Source: Escherichia phage EC100. Taken from it: a stretch of DNA of 64,000 nt. The stretch is taken from the sequence record NC_105587.1; one strand, 5' to 3'. Under the pieces are notes generated by a model, which saw only the letters and a program-made list of their open reading frames with translations, searched no databases and was not told the DNA's origin. A program made the translations under genes and the position numbers. Positions 16,618-64,000 of the stretch are shown here, piece after piece. Position 1 is the first letter of the stretch. Every line of letters begins with the position of its first letter.

Positions 16618-16834
16618 AAAATGGGAAACAAGGAAGTTTCCAGTAAAAGAACGTAAAGTTCCTGTTTATGATACTTCGGAAAAGCTATGTAGGGTGGTAC
16701 CACATAGATTAGCTGGTATCCCTAACATATCCGAGTGGTTACTTAAACAACGGAGGACTAACGTATCTCTTCGCATAGGGTTTGAGTTAGATAAAGTATA
16801 TGCTGAACTTTCTTCTTTGCTCAAGGAATCGTAA
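16592..16834 (+). CDS. hypothetical protein
   Basis: 80-aa ORF overlapping the helicase 3' end. Confidence 0.3.
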   Translation: MLEMTVKNKKWETRKFPVKERKVPVYDTSEKLCRVVPHRLAGIPNISEWLLKQRRTNVSLRIGFELDKVYAELSSLLKES

Positions 16835-16842
16835 AAATTTAT

Positions 16843-16871
16843 TTGCTTTCAGGAAAATTTTTCTGTATAAT
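16843..16871 (+). promoter_or_regulatory. cassette promoter, TTGCTT-17-TATAAT
   Basis: Near-identical to the 10241-10302 cassette, including the leader ATAGATTCATAAATTTGAGAGAGGAG. Confidence 0.6.
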
Positions 16872-16902
16872 AGATTCATAAATTTGAGAGAGGAGTTTAA
16901 AT

Positions 16903-17607
16903 ATGGCTGGTTCTCGCAGAAAGAAACATATCCATGAAATCCCGGATGAAGTCTTTAAAAAAGTTATAGAGCATCTGGAGAATGGTGGTACTAAGAAAGC
17001 AGCATGTGAAATGCTCGGCGTATCATCCAATCCAACTATGGAAAGGATGATTGAAGAATGGCAAGACCGCCAGATTCAAGTTGCCGAAATGAAGAAAAAG
17101 AAACGTGGCACACTTATTGAAGGCATAGAGTTAGCCAACGTTATTGAGCAGTATTTATCTGGTGATTCTTTTGAAGAAATTGCCGATCGTAATTATCGCT
17201 CTGTAGCAATGGTTAAATCTGTTCTGGAACGATATGGTGCTCTACTTCGTTTTAACGATATTGTAGATCCATTGAATCCTCCAATTATTCCTGATGATGC
17301 TGTAGCAGAAGAATTTGCAGTTGGTGAGCTTGTTTGGGTTCCTGGATACCAGTGTATCGGTGAAATCAAAAAAGCAATGGATAATCCTGTTGGTTGTTAC
17401 CGTGTTTGGCTTCTATCAGAAGGCAAACAACAGAACGTTCATTATATGAATTACGAGCTGGCTTCTGTTAAACATCTGGAAAAGTTAGGAGTAGACGTAA
17501 AATCTTTAGGATATAAGTGGACTCGTGAAGAAATTATTACGTTGATTAACGAAGCTGTTAAGGCCGCCTTGAAACTTGATAAAGAAAAAGGAAAACGCCG
17601 TGAGTAA
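16903..17607 (+). CDS. hypothetical protein, possible HTH DNA-binding protein
   Basis: 234 aa behind a cassette promoter; N-terminal GGTKKAACEMLGVS helix-turn-helix-like stretch. Confidence 0.5.
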   Translation: MAGSRRKKHIHEIPDEVFKKVIEHLENGGTKKAACEMLGVSSNPTMERMIEEWQDRQIQVAEMKKKKRGTLIEGIELANVIEQYLSGDSFEEIADRNYRSVAMVKSVLERYGALLRFNDIVDPLNPPIIPDDAVAEEFAVGELVWVPGYQCIGEIKKAMDNPVGCYRVWLLSEGKQQNVHYMNYELASVKHLEKLGVDVKSLGYKWTREEIITLINEAVKAALKLDKEKGKRRE

Positions 17608-56509: not shown

Positions 56510-57723
56510 TCTTTATCTCCCTCGGTGGAACCCTGAGGTCTACCACCTTCTTGACCAGATACACCTGTTGCAGAACCAGCAACGTTAGCAGGAATACGAA
56601 TCCTATCCATCTGCTCATCATCTAAAGGTTCAAGGTTCAGCTCTAAACGAGCTTCGTTACCAGTCATAATACCATTATTAACCAATGAGGTTAAATGTTT
56701 AGCCTCAGCTTCTTTATCTGGTGTTAATGCAGCTACTTCCTTAGTATTAGGAGTAATCTTATAACCAAAAAAGAAAGTAAGAGAACTAGTCAGTTTGTTC
56801 AGCATAGGAATGATAGTCATATAATAGAACAATTCGATGTTTGGTCGAATATTCGCATTATTACCACCATCAAGCAGTACTTGCGGAACTCCAAAGGCTA
56901 GACAAATAGATTTATTAAATCCTTCGATGTCTTCCTTAAAGTCTAGATCTTTAAAAGAGGATATTTGGGAGTACGGTTTAGCTTTCATACCACCATCTAG
57001 AATCAGGACAGAGGACTGACCAGTACTAGGATTATAATCTAGTTGTAATTCTTCTTGTTTACGCTCACGCAATTTCTTGTTCAGGATTTCATCCGTCTCA
57101 AGAATAAGACCAATCACGGTTCCGTTATCGAGGAATTTCTCTTTAAAGTTAAGCATCTTAGAACGCTTCTCAAGAGAATCAATAACAGTAGCAACACGAG
57201 ATTGTCCAGAAATTTGAGAATTTGTGCCGCACACGTAACTGTTATCCTTTATAAAGATAATCTCATCTACGCGATAGTCTATCTGATTATTAAATATAAA
57301 TTTTTTGATAAACTTATTGGCATCTGCCTCTACTTGCATTAGTGCAGCAGGGACATGGTAAAGTGCTGTGCCATCCCAATAGATGTATGCACAACCTTCA
57401 AAAAGTAGGTCAGTGACTACAAGTCTACGGAATGTGCTTATATCCATGAATGGATTAGGTCGTACATTTAAGAGAGTGTCTAGAGTCTTTGTCTTGATGC
57501 CATTAGCATACGTGACAATATTATATTTATCTCCGACAGTATAAGAACACTCCGCCGCACTATCTATAACCATATTAGCAGTTCTATTGAGAATCTCAAT
57601 TTTACTGTAGGCTTGTCCAGTGGTAAAAGGCTTACGGTTAGTGCGATGACTAACTGGTTCCATGTCTCTTATAATACGTTGACCCGGATTTAGCTTTTCA
57701 GTAATCCAGCTTTTAAAACCCAT
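56506..57723 (-). CDS. portal protein
   Basis: 405 aa, position between terminase/HE genes and the protease; acidic C-terminal region. Confidence 0.75.
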   Translation of the reverse strand: MGFKSWITEKLNPGQRIIRDMEPVSHRTNRKPFTTGQAYSKIEILNRTANMVIDSAAECSYTVGDKYNIVTYANGIKTKTLDTLLNVRPNPFMDISTFRRLVVTDLLFEGCAYIYWDGTALYHVPAALMQVEADANKFIKKFIFNNQIDYRVDEIIFIKDNSYVCGTNSQISGQSRVATVIDSLEKRSKMLNFKEKFLDNGTVIGLILETDEILNKKLRERKQEELQLDYNPSTGQSSVLILDGGMKAKPYSQISSFKDLDFKEDIEGFNKSICLAFGVPQVLLDGGNNANIRPNIELFYYMTIIPMLNKLTSSLTFFFGYKITPNTKEVAALTPDKEAEAKHLTSLVNNGIMTGNEARLELNLEPLDDEQMDRIRIPANVAGSATGVSGQEGGRPQGSTEGDKE

Positions 57724-58175
57724 TATAAGAACCTTGCGAATCCTGATTTTGTTTCAGTCTTGACTTGTGTCTTTTCTTGAGGATTCTGTAATTTGTCTTT
57801 CTGCTTTTGAACCCACACTTTTTGCTTATTAGCAGAAAATAAAGGAGGTTCTTTTGTGTAAACCTTATGTAATAATTGGTGATGGTGCTGGCACAATGTT
57901 ACCACGTCCCTAACTAACTCATGCTCATATTTCTTGTAGAATGCTTCCCTATTTGAAAGGACGATATTCTCATCAGTGAAATCCAGCTGGAGTTCTTTAG
58001 CAAATTTTTTTATTAGCTGAGATATAGTATGATAATGATGAAGTTCTAGGTCTTCACTACTACCACATATAGCACAGCAACCATCCTTACTATACCTAGA
58101 TTTTATACCATCCCTCATTATGGAAATGGCATCACGTTTGTACTTAGTATTAGTGGCCATAATCCTCCAATCCAA
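57723..58175 (-). CDS. HNH homing endonuclease
   Basis: 150 aa; HNH motif CAICGSSEDLELHHY...N...LCQHHHQLLH. Confidence 0.65.
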   Translation of the reverse strand: MDWRIMATNTKYKRDAISIMRDGIKSRYSKDGCCAICGSSEDLELHHYHTISQLIKKFAKELQLDFTDENIVLSNREAFYKKYEHELVRDVVTLCQHHHQLLHKVYTKEPPLFSANKQKVWVQKQKDKLQNPQEKTQVKTETKSGFARFL

Positions 58176-58824
58176 AGCTACTTAGAAAGATTACTATATC
58201 CTCAGGAGCAACATTAAAAAATTCCGTGCTTCCTGTAAAATTAGAAAACCCACAGTTTTTATTATAATATTCTCTGTGAACTTCCTTTTCTAAATCTAAA
58301 GCAGTCTCTCTATCTGGCAGATGATACATGGTGAACAAGTATAGGTCAGAAAATCCAGATTCTCTTTTAACTTCATTCAACCGTTTCTCAGGGTATAAGC
58401 TTATGCCTACTTTAGTACCGCTAGAGGAGGACATGATATAAAGGAATCCACCATTCTCCCACTTAAGAGAACAATAAGGGCATCTCTTACCTTGAGTCAA
58501 TCCATCTAAGGTAATGAAACAGTCATGCCCATTATTGCAGCGTAGATGTAGTTTTGTTTTAGCATTAGTATAGCTGCTTAACAGAGTATACCCTATATTA
58601 GATATTCTGTTACTAACTTCATCTAACGATATTGTATTATTGGAGCAGTGTGGACAACCTCTCCCCATATGGAGTATAGAATGTGGTGTTGCTTCCCAAA
58701 CGTGTGCTCTCTGGCATTTAAATACTGTTTTTGTACGTTGGTTTACATATTCACCGACAATTTGGATTCCACGATCAGCTAATCTAATATTTATATCTTT
58801 TATTGTTAGCTTTTGTCGACCCAT
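58150..58824 (-). CDS. GIY-YIG-like (T5orf172-type) endonuclease with two zinc ribbons
   Basis: 224 aa; two C...H...GxGCPxC zinc-ribbon repeats, then GGFLYIM...KVGIS...RLNE module; AGGAG SD. Confidence 0.5.
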   Translation of the reverse strand: MGRQKLTIKDINIRLADRGIQIVGEYVNQRTKTVFKCQRAHVWEATPHSILHMGRGCPHCSNNTISLDEVSNRISNIGYTLLSSYTNAKTKLHLRCNNGHDCFITLDGLTQGKRCPYCSLKWENGGFLYIMSSSSGTKVGISLYPEKRLNEVKRESGFSDLYLFTMYHLPDRETALDLEKEVHREYYNKNCGFSNFTGSTEFFNVAPEDIVIFLSSFGLEDYGH

Positions 58825-58954
58825 AGAATCTCCTACACCTCATGTAGAGCATTAATTTTTCTTGTTTACGTTCTATTATGGGAGAAGTTCTCCCGATCAA
58901 TGAATATAGTATACATAATCGTATCGAATTTGTAAAGGGGATTTTAAAATGCAG

Positions 58955-58985
58955 GAATGGGATACCAACTGAGTAGTATCCCATC
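58955..58985 (-). terminator. putative terminator after the terminase large subunit
   Basis: ATGGGATAC / GTATCCCAT stem followed by a T-rich tract on the minus strand. Confidence 0.4.
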
Positions 58986-58995
58986 CTATATTTAT

Positions 58996-60312
58996 TTATT
59001 TACCACGGGAAATAGAGTAAATTCCATAGCGCAGCGCATCACAGAGGTGAGAGTTAGCATCATGACGTGGTTTTTCACGTGATAATTTTTCTTCACCTTC
59101 TTGGAAGTCCCATTTATAGTTCTGCAACGCATGGATTAATGAGGAACATGAAGCATCTACAATAATCTTGCCCTGCTGGAATAGCGCTTGCAAGCATGCT
59201 AGACCGTCTAGGACAGATTTTTTAGCTGGAGCTGATGCAATTTCATGTTCATAAGCTAAGTCCTGACGGAACTGAGCTGCGGCAGAGTCAACAAAAATAC
59301 GATCAACTTTATAACGATCTATACAGTGCTGAATATAAGCAGCATGCTGAGCTGTGGTCTTCTCCGCCTGCTGGTACTCTTCTAATACATAGTAAGTATC
59401 CGTATCGTAATGATACTTGATAGTAAGAACTGCTGTAGGATCACGATAACCAACGTCAATGCCAAGCAATGTTTCGAATGCTTCATCATCTTTAAAGAAG
59501 TGACGCATACCTTTGAGATCTTTAACATGGTCGATGGCATTAAAGGTATCGAAGATCTGACCTTCGAATACAGAGAAGTCAGCCTCGTATTCTTGTCGGA
59601 AGTAGTTTTTACTAACAGTACGACGTGCTTCTTCGATGTCATTAAGGTCAGCACGTGGGTTATCACGATATGTACCATGAATAGATACCCAGTTAGGTAA
59701 TGTATCATCAAATCCATAGGCGTAAAACTCTTTAAACCAGTTACCCCCACGAGGAGTAGAGATAAATAGAGCCTTAGAATTAGGCTTATCTAGAGTAGGA
59801 CGCAACTGAACTCTAAAGGCATCACCACCCACATCAGAAATTGCCGCCTCATCGAAGATGATAAAATCATATGAACGTCCAACTGCGGAGTCAGCCTGAG
59901 CGGCAGAAGCTAGTTTAAATAGAGAACCATTAGCTAACTCAATCTCTTTATCTTTAGCGTTCTCACGTTCGGTCTGTAGGCCATACTTCTTAATAAGACC
60001 ACGAATCTGAGACCATCCGATGTTGGCCAGTGAGTAGTTAGGAGCAACTACTAACACTTTCACATTAGGTTCCAACAATTTTAGGAATCCAAGTGTATAT
60101 GCTATAAAGGATTTGCCTACACGGCGTGACACACACGCCGTTACAAAACGATGTCTAGGGTCCTCTAAAGCATTAATGATTGCTATTTGAGGACCATTAG
60201 GTGTAATACCTTCTTGTGCTAGTATTCCTGAAACAGGTAAACGAAAGAAACGTTTATCTATCCCGAAATCAATAACATCTACTGTGTTAACGTAGGGTCT
60301 TGATACTTCCAT
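58996..60312 (-). CDS. terminase large subunit
   Basis: 438 aa; Walker A-like RRVGKS, Walker B-like DFIIFDEAA, C-terminal nuclease domain acidic residues. Confidence 0.85.
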   Translation of the reverse strand: MEVSRPYVNTVDVIDFGIDKRFFRLPVSGILAQEGITPNGPQIAIINALEDPRHRFVTACVSRRVGKSFIAYTLGFLKLLEPNVKVLVVAPNYSLANIGWSQIRGLIKKYGLQTERENAKDKEIELANGSLFKLASAAQADSAVGRSYDFIIFDEAAISDVGGDAFRVQLRPTLDKPNSKALFISTPRGGNWFKEFYAYGFDDTLPNWVSIHGTYRDNPRADLNDIEEARRTVSKNYFRQEYEADFSVFEGQIFDTFNAIDHVKDLKGMRHFFKDDEAFETLLGIDVGYRDPTAVLTIKYHYDTDTYYVLEEYQQAEKTTAQHAAYIQHCIDRYKVDRIFVDSAAAQFRQDLAYEHEIASAPAKKSVLDGLACLQALFQQGKIIVDASCSSLIHALQNYKWDFQEGEEKLSREKPRHDANSHLCDALRYGIYSISRGK

Positions 60313-60794
60313 TACTTCTTACCTCCAGTAGCTAGGGAAGTAATTAGGTCCATGTAGTTTTGATCCCCAGCTCCAGCAATAATATTATTCTGGATATTGG
60401 TCTGGTTAGCTGGAGTACGGGCTGCTGCCTTCACTTTCTCCAATTCTACCATCATTTTCATTTCTTCCATCTTCATCTTGTGTGCCTTCCAGAGAATGTC
60501 CATAATATCCTGGTCAGAACCCATGCCAGTTTCTTCTAGCTCTTCTAGCTTACGCTTAATAACTTCATCTAGAACACCAAATAAACGATCTCTATTACGG
60601 AATCCACTCTCCATAAAAATATCATTTAAGTAGTTTTTAACTTCGCTACGATTCATAATATCTCGGAAAGCAATTTCAGACATTCCAAGACTACGTGCGG
60701 CAGAAGGCACATCACTCCCGCACTGTAAATAAGCTTCAATTACATCCATCCCTTCAGGGGACATAAGATCTGGTACTAATACATCATTTGCCAT
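60312..60794 (-). CDS. putative terminase small subunit
   Basis: 160 aa, immediately upstream and overlapping the large subunit; HTH-like [12 protein letters not shown]. Confidence 0.5.
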
Positions 60795-60804
60795 ATTTCC
60801 TCCT

Positions 60805-62727
60805 TTAGGTAAGGCGTTGAATTATAAGTTTAATATTTGGTAAGCATGCTTTCATGCCAATTATATTGCTCATAGAGGATTCTAACCAAATAGAGATATT
60901 ATTATTTCCATCATTTCTCATATAGTATGTTAGAGTATAGTAACCCGTTTGACCTACGGATCCTGGCAACCCAGATACCCAGTACGGAGTTGGAGTATAC
61001 CCAGCAGCCTGTAATTTACAAGCATTTACTACAGTACCTTTAATAGTAAAAAATGGTACATATTCTCCTGCAGGTAGGGACAATATTTGGTGAAGTTTTT
61101 TATCGATAGTATTGCCACCCATTCTAAACCTACTATCGCCATATTCAGCGCCTTTAGATAGCATTTCCGTAGGATTAAAGCAGCCAATACCTCCTGCAGA
61201 CAACCATGTGTCATCCAGGAACTCCATAGTACATACAATTGCGCCATTTCTACTACTATTAAGATCTAGTCCCACGGTGCCAACATGCACGGAACCATTA
61301 CCCTGAAATACTATGTTACCAGATAGTACAGTACTTCCGCTACCACCTAGAAGTCTTAAAGGTAAAAGATTCTCACTCCAAACATCTCCATAATTGCTGC
61401 CTATTTTTGGAGGATTACTAGAAACATACCAAGATGCTGAAGGTAAAAAGTTATAAATACTAACTACATTAGTATTTAAACCACCAACGTTACCGCCTTT
61501 AATACTTGGTGCGTTATTGCTTTCCGTAGTGGGCAGCCCAAATGTTGCTATGCCAGAGATCCCAGTAGAGGGGGCACCCATACTCAAGTTACACCCAACA
61601 TCACGAAAATCAGCCCTGTTACCGACATTGAAGTTTTTCTCTATAAAGTTGATAAACTTCCAAGATGTATTATTAACGTTAATCCCTTTAATAATAAATT
61701 CAGTGGGGCTTAATTTTATATCATTACCTGTGAATAATCCAGCATCAATACTATAACCTGAACCATTATACACTAAGTTAGTAACATACCAGGTAATTTT
61801 AGATGGATAAATACCGAGGTGCTCACTATATATACCTATGGGCCCATTAGCAGCATCATTCGGATCACCCATACTTTCCCAATACGCATAGTTAGTGGGA
61901 TCAGCACGTGCGAAACCTACAGAGTACTTAGGGGCCGAGGGATTGCTAGGATTAGACATAAAGTTAAGAGCCCCAGAACTAGAAGCACCGTGCACGGCTC
62001 CAGCAGTAGTATAGTTAGGCCCCTCCATACCGTAAAGAACTCTATTACAAGACCTTCCACGAACATATATGGCATTAAATCCAAAGTTTCTAGCTCCGGG
62101 ATGCCTAACGTAGTCGCTAGGGATAGTTAGAGTTCCTGAATCCGGCACTACATATCCTGAACCATCCCAGGCAGACTTATAAAGAGCGGCACCCCCTAAG
62201 TACATTGCACTAGATGCAAACCCTCTACGTCCACTAAAGGCTCCAAATATATGCTGACATCCAGTACCATCTCTTAACTTTTGTGGTATAGTGCCACTAG
62301 TACCTGTATTAAAATAGCCTACATCAAGTGAAAGATCGGCACTAGCTGTTATTTGTGTTTTTAACCCACCCTGAGACATAACCTGAGGATTTATAATACC
62401 ATAGGCTTTTGCACCTACCCCCATAGACATGCCAGATAACATATGTCTAGAGCCATCAGAAAACTCAATTTCTGTTAATACAACCCTATTAGGGTCATTA
62501 TTATGTAGCTGTGTAATTCTACTAGGCATTTCAGACCAGTAATAGTCACCAGCGCCCTGATCCAATCTTAATCCAGTAGAATGAGTTTCCGTTATAATTA
62601 CGTGCGGCATATCTGAATGAAAGATGGTTTGGGAATCAGGGTTGATATGTTGGTTAGTATCTCCACCACTACCCCTTCGCAGTGAGAGTATAGATTTGTT
62701 ATTTAGCTTACCAGCGAAAAAACTCAT
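60805..62727 (-). CDS. oad: receptor-binding tail protein (T5 pb5/oad-like)
   Basis: 640 aa; Gly/Ser/Asn-rich beta-type composition; divergent from an Llp-like lipoprotein gene. Confidence 0.6.
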
Positions 62728-62746
62728 AAGTTCTCCAAAAATTTAG

Positions 62747-62775
62747 TTGCTTATACTGCCATAATTCTGTATAAT
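62747..62775 (+). promoter_or_regulatory. cassette promoter, TTGCTT-17-TATAAT, for llp
   Basis: -35 62747-62752, -10 62770-62775, GAGGAG SD before ATG 62807. Confidence 0.6.
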
Positions 62776-62806
62776 AGTATTATAAATTAAATAGAGGAGA
62801 ATGTAA

Positions 62807-63040
62807 ATGAAAAAATTATTTTTAGCTCTGGCAGTGGTACTTCTTTCGGCTTGCTCTACTTTTGGGCCTAAGGATATTAAATGTGAGGCCTACTATATAC
62901 AGGATCATGTGAAATATAAGGCTAATGTTTTTGATAGAAAAGGGGATATGTTTTTGGTGTCACCAATTATGGCCTATGGGTCTTTCTGGGCCCCGGTAAG
63001 CTACTTTACCGAAGGAAATACATGCGAGGGAGTTTTCTAA
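62807..63040 (+). CDS. llp: Llp-like lytic-conversion lipoprotein (superinfection exclusion)
   Basis: 77 aa; signal peptide with lipobox LLSAC; small Cys-containing mature domain; adjacent and divergent to the receptor-binding gene. Confidence 0.7.
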   Translation: MKKLFLALAVVLLSACSTFGPKDIKCEAYYIQDHVKYKANVFDRKGDMFLVSPIMAYGSFWAPVSYFTEGNTCEGVF

Positions 63041-63194
63041 GTAAAAACCACCCCAGTAACCATCACCACTTAAGATGAATCTAGTGCAGAATTAGTTCAG
63101 GATGCCACACAAGACACTATGGAGGGTGTGATGGGAATATTTACACTAATCGCTGCAATTGCTAGAATATTTTAAATACCACACTTATAGGAGC

Positions 63195-63332
63195 ATGAAA
63201 GATATGTCAAACAAAAGAAAGAGCAGACGTGGAGAAGTGTACGATAGCTGGATTAATAGCTTTGGGTTCGGAACTATCCTATTCTTTATTTTCGTAGGTT
63301 TTTGGTTAGCAGCTATGGCGGGGTGGATTTAA
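63195..63332 (+). CDS. small membrane protein (45 aa)
   Basis: Hand-found ORF with AGGAG SD; basic N-terminus then one hydrophobic helix (TILFFIFVGFWLAAMAGW). Confidence 0.3.
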   Translation: MKDMSNKRKSRRGEVYDSWINSFGFGTILFFIFVGFWLAAMAGWI

Positions 63333-63439
63333 TGGAATGGGTAATTATTGCACTACTAGGGATTGTGATTATTGGGCAATGTATTTTAGATAATCACTTA
63401 GCTAGAGTTGAAACTTTATTAACGGAGAAACGTAAATGA
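63332..63439 (+). CDS. small membrane protein (35 aa)
   Basis: ATG overlaps the upstream stop (TAATG); hydrophobic helix EWVIIALLGIVIIG. Confidence 0.3.
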   Translation: MEWVIIALLGIVIIGQCILDNHLARVETLLTEKRK

Positions 63440-63630
63440 TGGAGGTAGCAATTACACTAATAGTAATACTAGTTTGGGTAATCTTTATTGCCTCTCGTAT
63501 TGTGTACGTTCGCCTAAAAACTCTAGAAGCCCAGGTAAAACAACAACAAGTTGCTCTAGAAAAGCTAGTATTACTCCAACGTTGTGATAGCACCCGTATT
63601 CTGCAAATTGAGAGGGAATTAGATGTTTAG
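63436..63630 (+). CDS. small membrane protein (64 aa)
   Basis: ATGA overlap with the upstream ORF; N-terminal TM helix then coiled-coil tail. Confidence 0.35.
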   Translation: MMEVAITLIVILVWVIFIASRIVYVRLKTLEAQVKQQQVALEKLVLLQRCDSTRILQIERELDV

Positions 63631-63868
63631 TATTATAGTTGCTTTTATTATCGGAGTAATCGCGGGAGTTTTCGGAATGACTGCGGCTATTAACAAGCAT
63701 CGTAAGTATACTGCGGAAGTATCGCGGGAGATTGCGGAAAGAGAGCGGAAGTTTGACGAGAAACGTGCGGAGTTTGAGCGGGAGTGGTCGGATGGATCTC
63801 GGGCGTCGCGGAAGAGATTTCGTGAGTTTAGACCAGAGCACAGGTTTGATGACCCTTCTATGCGCTAA
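63623..63868 (+). CDS. small membrane protein (81 aa)
   Basis: Overlaps the upstream ORF; N-terminal TM helix then charged Arg/Glu-rich tail. Confidence 0.35.
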   Translation: MFSIIVAFIIGVIAGVFGMTAAINKHRKYTAEVSREIAERERKFDEKRAEFEREWSDGSRASRKRFREFRPEHRFDDPSMR

Positions 63869-64000
63869 TTTGGAAATCTCGAAATTTCATAAGATTACAC
63901 ATGGAGGTGTGTCCAGTGGCCCTCCAGATGAGAATGAGTCTCATTACCGCCTGGTACTTAGCAGGCTAATAGTCACGGCATGTTATCATTACACACCGTG

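Follow-up and report, generated by a model that had tools for sequence, protein, structure and literature searches.

The window, by which we mean the entire 64,000 nt stretch of DNA that was analyzed, carries two divergent genes separated by a spacer of 79 bp (62728-62806). The leftward gene, oad (60805-62727, minus strand), is a 640-aa ORF encoding pb5, a receptor-binding tail-tip protein of the T5 (predicted FhuA) type. The rightward gene, llp (62807-63040, plus strand), is a 77-aa ORF encoding the precursor of a lytic conversion / superinfection exclusion lipoprotein. A terminase small subunit gene (PHROG 3802) occupies 60312-60794, so that oad is situated between this gene and the divergent llp. 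The original prediction had described a divergent pair of 640-aa and 77-aa ORFs, and both were recovered at these coordinates and on these strands.

Deposited phage genomes were searched with megablast. The interval 60600-63200 is 100% identical at the DNA level, over the full query, to four records, EC104, EC105, EC122 and EC142, which are Escherichia Tequintavirus isolates from bird faeces (PMC9583813). Phage T5 is 89.5% identical to the same interval. The window is colinear with the annotated T5 record AY543070, where the order is the terminase large subunit gene, T5.156 (assigned to the terminase small subunit through PHROG 3802), oad (pb5), a pair of opposed promoter features within the spacer, and llp, followed by four small single-transmembrane ORFs. 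In this record oad and llp are T5.157 and T5.158, llp is spelled 'lpp', and a mature peptide and an acylated Cys are annotated. T5 and the window agree in gene order, orientation and protein lengths (640/77 aa). They also have in common the 79-bp spacer, the two promoters, the lipobox and Cys residues of Llp, and the key contact residues. The T5 proteins pb5 and Llp both have solved structures in complex with FhuA (PDB 8B14, 8A8C, 8A60, 7QJF). Sequence identity, retention of key residues, synteny and promoter motifs all connect the locus with T5. We regard it as almost certain that the window belongs to a T5-type siphophage (Tequintavirus, EC104/EC105/EC122 group) and that the locus is its host-recognition and superinfection-exclusion module.

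The identity to T5 is uneven. It falls to ~82% over the middle of oad (61000-62200). On either side (60600-61000 and 62200-63400), in the terminase genes and in the 5' part of oad, the spacer and llp, it is 92-98%, with 96-98% for llp and the 5' part of oad. The changes are nearly all synonymous. This mosaic suggests that the core of oad diverged long ago and that recombination occurred at its edges. Further Tequintavirus relatives of the window are SP15, vB_EcoS_FFH_1 and Salmonella phage S130/S131. The whole window is identical to no single deposited record, the best being EC105 with 99.1% identity over 40000-64000. EC122 has 73 mismatches to the window in 57600-64000, all of them from 58951 on (the terminase large subunit gene region), which indicates mosaicism among the EC104/105/122 isolates.

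pb5 and Llp

The 640-aa protein is identical to T5 pb5 at 607/640 positions (95%) with no gaps. It matches PDB chains 8B14_B and 8A8C_B over its full length (residues 1-640) and belongs to PHROG 4815, 'receptor binding tail protein' (E=1.5e-257, covering 1-640). The gene had been predicted as a pb5-like receptor-binding gene; its product is an ortholog of T5 pb5, which goes beyond that description. A Shine-Dalgarno sequence, GGAG (62733-62736, minus strand), was read from the sequence 5 nt from the oad ATG at 62727.

The residues by which T5 pb5 contacts its receptor were then compared. Four loops of T5 pb5 enter the lumen of FhuA (van den Berg et al. 2022, PMC9586334). Gln115 at the tip of L1 and Phe170 at the tip of L2 contact the FhuA plug, and L4 comprises residues 570-590 (PMC9586334). 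Gly166, the site of a classical oad mutation (G166W), sits in the pb5-FhuA interface, and the loop 571-580 is a FhuA contact area (Degroux et al., bioRxiv 10.1101/2022.09.22.509047). Gln115, Gly166 and Phe170 are all unchanged in the window protein, and L4 is identical at 19/21 positions, the differences being A576G and N578T. Together with I116V, which is beside Gln115, these make 3/33 substitutions in or adjoining the FhuA-contacting loops. SP15, FFH1 and S130 carry all three in their own pb5 proteins, which are 98-99% identical to that of the window. The sole nearby change specific to the window allele, among 7 aligned pb5 sequences, is M160I. Since substitutions are found in and near the contact loops, fine specificity for FhuA variants could differ from that of T5.

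The 77-aa ORF is an ortholog of T5 Llp. The two precursors are identical at 75/77 positions (97%), and the window protein matches PDB 8A60_B (FhuA-Llp complex; E=6e-50) and 7QJF_A over its full length. It was also assigned to PHROG 1119, 'Cor superinfection exclusion protein' (E=4.9e-19, over 1-76). Identity between Llp and Cor is merely ~20% (PMC9586334), and the 'Cor' label is therefore a broad grouping. The Cor proteins of T1, phi80, N15 and HK022 resemble Llp as small outer-membrane lipoproteins that exclude FhuA-dependent phages. In contrast, these phages belong to different families from the window phage, and their receptor-binding proteins are unrelated. Given the PHROG assignments and the identity to T5, both ORFs are genuine genes and not chance reading frames.

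A signal peptide and lipobox were called in Llp by regular expression and manual inspection of the motif, in agreement with the earlier description of a lipoprotein precursor with the lipobox LLSAC. The precursor begins with MKKLFLALAVVLLSA followed by CST. Its n-region contains 2 Lys and leads into a hydrophobic core, and residues 13-16 form the lipobox LSAC. The signal peptide (62807-62851, plus strand) thus ends in L-S-A before Cys16. In the T5 record mature Llp likewise starts at this Cys, and lipoprotein signal peptidase is named as the processing enzyme. Mature Llp (62 aa; 62852-63037, plus strand) is 61/62 identical to T5. In T5 Llp, Cys1 is lipid-anchored, Cys11 and Cys58 form a disulphide, and Ile39-Trp46 fills the space of the FhuA switch helix (PMC9586334). 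Cys1, Ser at +2, Cys11, Cys58 and the segment IMAYGSFW at Ile39-Trp46 are all present in the mature window protein. The two differences from T5 are M8L, in the signal peptide, and M16I, the sole one in the mature protein, where relatives have M, I or V. The llp Shine-Dalgarno sequence, GAGGAG (62794-62799, plus strand), was read from the sequence 7 nt from the ATG and is kept in relatives. Inactivation of FhuA by T5 Llp excludes T5 and confers resistance to phi80, colicin M and albomycin (PMC9586334). With 97% identity to T5 Llp, the window protein would be expected to inactivate FhuA as well.

Relative to T5, oad has 195 synonymous and 33 non-synonymous codon differences, and llp has 6 and 2, respectively, which argues for purifying selection on both genes. 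Scans of Pfam and NCBIfam gave no match for pb5 or Llp. Neither collection has a model for pb5 or Llp, so the empty scans are no argument against the assignment, and family membership rests on the PHROGs, the PDB matches and direct comparison with T5.

The GenBank records of EC104, EC105, EC122 and EC142 (ON185581-ON185584) call the llp ORF 'lysozyme'. One alternative is that the ORF does not encode a receptor-blocking lipoprotein but, for example, a lysozyme, or that it is a non-functional remnant. The label is in its favor. Against it, the ORF matched no lysozyme or other Pfam/NCBIfam family, and its T5 ortholog is experimentally characterized and crystallized. Also against it are the signal peptide and lipobox, which are intact, the conservation of the promoter and Shine-Dalgarno sequence, and the 6 synonymous and 2 non-synonymous codon differences from T5 noted above. 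We judge this reading to be exceedingly improbable. The 'lysozyme' label was rejected as a misannotation, given the missing lysozyme family match and the 97% identity to T5 Llp, and it looks like an annotation-pipeline error.

The region following llp was also inspected. A consensus scan of 63040-63160 found no intrinsic terminator, and the fold of 63036-63175 was no better than that of shuffled sequences (z = 0.04). A promoter-like TTTACA-17-TAGAAT with an extended -10 TG is present at 63140-63168 (plus strand), ahead of a run of small ORFs (63140-63868). These ORFs encode single hydrophobic segments and are the equivalents of T5.159-T5.162; no terminator is evident between them and llp.

Promoters of the spacer

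Two promoters can be recognized in the spacer. P_llp (62747-62775, plus strand) is a T5 early-type sigma-70 promoter cassette consisting of TTGCTT (62747-62752), 17 nt and TATAAT (62770-62775). It lies inside a plus strand promoter feature of the T5 record. A pattern search for TTGCTT-17-TATAAT that tolerated one mismatch found 12 copies in the window vs 1.33 expected, with a maximum of 4 in 100 shuffles. The flanks are shared as well: AAAAATTTA precedes the copies, and ATAAATT and a GAGGAG Shine-Dalgarno sequence follow them. Eleven of the 12 copies are within 295-20302; the llp copy is alone in the remaining 44 kb, i.e. the late region. P_llp shows extended similarity to the copy at 16843, which is PN25. 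The claim that llp is driven by a cassette promoter is correct, since the cassettes form a family with a PN25 member.

The promoter at 16843-16871 (TTGCTTTCAGGAAAATTTTTCTGTATAAT) with its flanks (16818-16915, plus strand) matches the classical T5 promoter PN25, which is used in expression vectors; this identification rests on a published primer sequence (PMC4447248). Of the 11 cassettes other than P_llp, which share A-rich boxes upstream and ATAAATT boxes downstream, those up to 8201 point leftward (minus strand) and those from 10246 rightward (plus strand). This strand switch suggests that early transcription diverges near 8.2-10.2 kb.

Llp is expressed early according to Decker et al. 1994, as cited in PMC9586334, and an early cassette at llp fits this published expression.

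P_oad (62779-62807, minus strand) is a predicted leftward promoter consisting of TTTACA (62807-62802), 17 nt and TATAAT (62784-62779). A promoter scan ranked it best in the region, with 11/12 consensus matches, and T5 has an annotated minus-strand promoter that encloses it. The llp start codon shares its first base with the -35 hexamer of P_oad. P_llp and P_oad are interleaved face to face, with their -10 boxes 3 bp apart on opposite strands. The predicted start sites, ~62782 on the plus strand and ~62772 on the minus strand, each fall within the opposite core promoter. From this geometry, simultaneous occupancy of both promoters by RNA polymerase seems unlikely.

The spacer is identical to that of T5 at 78/79 bases. 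The llp promoter cassette can be recognized even in IrmaTschudi, where the genes on either side are unrelated or have diverged strongly. As a regulatory element, the spacer appears to be a conserved joint between differing coding sequences. IrmaTschudi 1410-1508 aligns with window 62720-62815, with the cassette and Shine-Dalgarno region kept between Tequintavirus and Epseptimavirus.

The interleaved promoters raise the possibility of a toggle from early to late expression, in which the receptor-binding protein could be kept off during synthesis of the receptor blocker. Separately, the substitutions in L4 and L1 might tune the recognition of natural FhuA variants. The first idea comes from the promoter geometry and the second from sequence, and we put both forward as doubtful proposals.

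Receptor assignment among T5-like phages

The original prediction left the receptor as FhuA, BtuB, FepA or other. BtuB is the receptor of most Markadamsvirinae, with FhuA (T5, probably S131) and FepA each used by a few (PMC8594841). The window receptor-binding protein was compared with all phage records by tblastn, and the distribution of identities was sharply bimodal. The T5 type comprises about 28 records, with identities of 86% or more. The receptor-binding proteins of Klebsiella Sugarlandvirus phages have ~40% identity, and those of the remaining several hundred T5-like phages have ~28-31%. The window type of Llp occurs in just 32 records, every one at least 89% identical, and it adjoins a T5-type pb5 gene in every region inspected. 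The bimodal identity of the receptor-binding protein and the association of this Llp type with T5-type pb5 place the window module in the FhuA type. FhuA, rather than BtuB or FepA, is the receptor predicted by orthology.

We considered whether the window protein could be a pb5 homolog with a changed receptor, for instance BtuB or FepA in place of FhuA, as in BF23, DT57C or H8. Receptor modules are indeed swapped among T5-like phages (PMC4728585; PMC8594841), and the window allele does carry two substitutions in the contact loop L4 and one beside Gln115. On the other side, receptor-binding proteins outside the T5-type cluster are only ~28-40% identical to the window protein, T5 pb5 is 95% identical, and Gln115, Gly166 and Phe170 are kept. 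The cognate Llp points in the same direction, being 97% identical to the FhuA-specific Llp of T5, while the BF23-type Llp is not homologous to that of T5 and gives no protection against T5 (PMC4728585) and the IrmaTschudi lipoprotein is unrelated. A switch to BtuB or FepA was rejected on these identity grounds and is, in our estimate, very improbable.

The architecture itself is more widespread than the T5-type proteins. The hrs-llp locus of BF23/DT57C (BtuB) and the corresponding locus of IrmaTschudi-type Markadamsvirinae have the same arrangement, a receptor-binding protein gene and a divergent small lipoprotein gene with an early-promoter cassette. BF23/DT57C also follow the same logic, in that the cognate lipoprotein blocks the receptor (PMC4728585). 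IrmaTschudi (Epseptimavirus) served as a control. It has the same architecture, but its receptor-binding protein is ~29% identical to that of the window and its lipoprotein (MKKLLAIVVAAVVLTGC...) is unrelated in sequence.

Two other relatives were examined. In slur09 (506-2738 of the extracted region), pb5 is 65% and Llp 91% identical to the window proteins, so divergence of the receptor-binding protein and of Llp is decoupled within the T5-type Llp group. In vB_Kpn_B01, a Sugarlandvirus with a receptor-binding protein of ~40% identity, a small ORF divergent to the receptor-binding protein gene (1163-1387 of the extracted region) has an N-terminal hydrophobic helix. This ORF was tried as an Llp analog and rejected as it has no lipobox, which implies that a lipoprotein partner is not universal in Demerecviridae.

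Proposed mechanism and significance

The steps of the mechanism are established for T5, and by orthology the window phage would proceed as follows. Transcribed leftward along with the terminase genes, oad would yield pb5 as a late gene product. A pb5 monomer would be carried at the tip of the central tail fibre, and its distal loops would enter the extracellular lumen of FhuA, the outer-membrane ferrichrome transporter. The pb5-FhuA interaction would bind the phage irreversibly and trigger DNA ejection. llp would be transcribed rightward from its strong early-type promoter, early after infection. Llp would then be exported and cut by signal peptidase II after LLSA, leaving Cys1 to be lipidated, and the Ser at +2 would sort it to the inner leaflet of the outer membrane. 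From there, Llp would bind the periplasmic face and plug of FhuA, with the FhuA plug in a non-native conformation. By reverse allostery the FhuA loops EL7 and EL8 would be folded inward, removing the pb5 binding site. Infected cells and debris would stop adsorbing T5-type phage, which would protect against superinfection and prevent the loss of progeny on debris.

The original prediction that Llp blocks the phage's own receptor is upheld in a more precise form, in which Llp exerts the block allosterically from the periplasmic side and is not an external plug of the receptor (van den Berg et al. 2022, PMC9586334). The reading of the locus as a pair governing host range and exclusion is likewise supported, and orthology to T5 allows the receptor to be named as the FhuA type. 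Through the same orthology, FhuA binding, lipidation, exclusion and the timing of expression are all expected to be as in T5.

The locus is already known and is ordinary, the sequence being in GenBank and the mechanism in the literature. The T5 biology of oad and llp was established between 1991 and 2022, structures of both complexes included. As the locus has already been deposited and annotated, it does not constitute a discovery. In practice, this allele can be assigned with confidence to the FhuA type, and the 'lysozyme' label that the EC104/105/122/142 records carry can be corrected. The ideas of a less trivial nature that remain are interference between P_llp and P_oad and the possible fine-tuning to FhuA variants through the loop substitutions. 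For the phage itself, the locus sets the terminal receptor, predicted to be FhuA, and the specificity of superinfection exclusion, which makes it useful for annotation, the design of phage cocktails and the prediction of cross-resistance.
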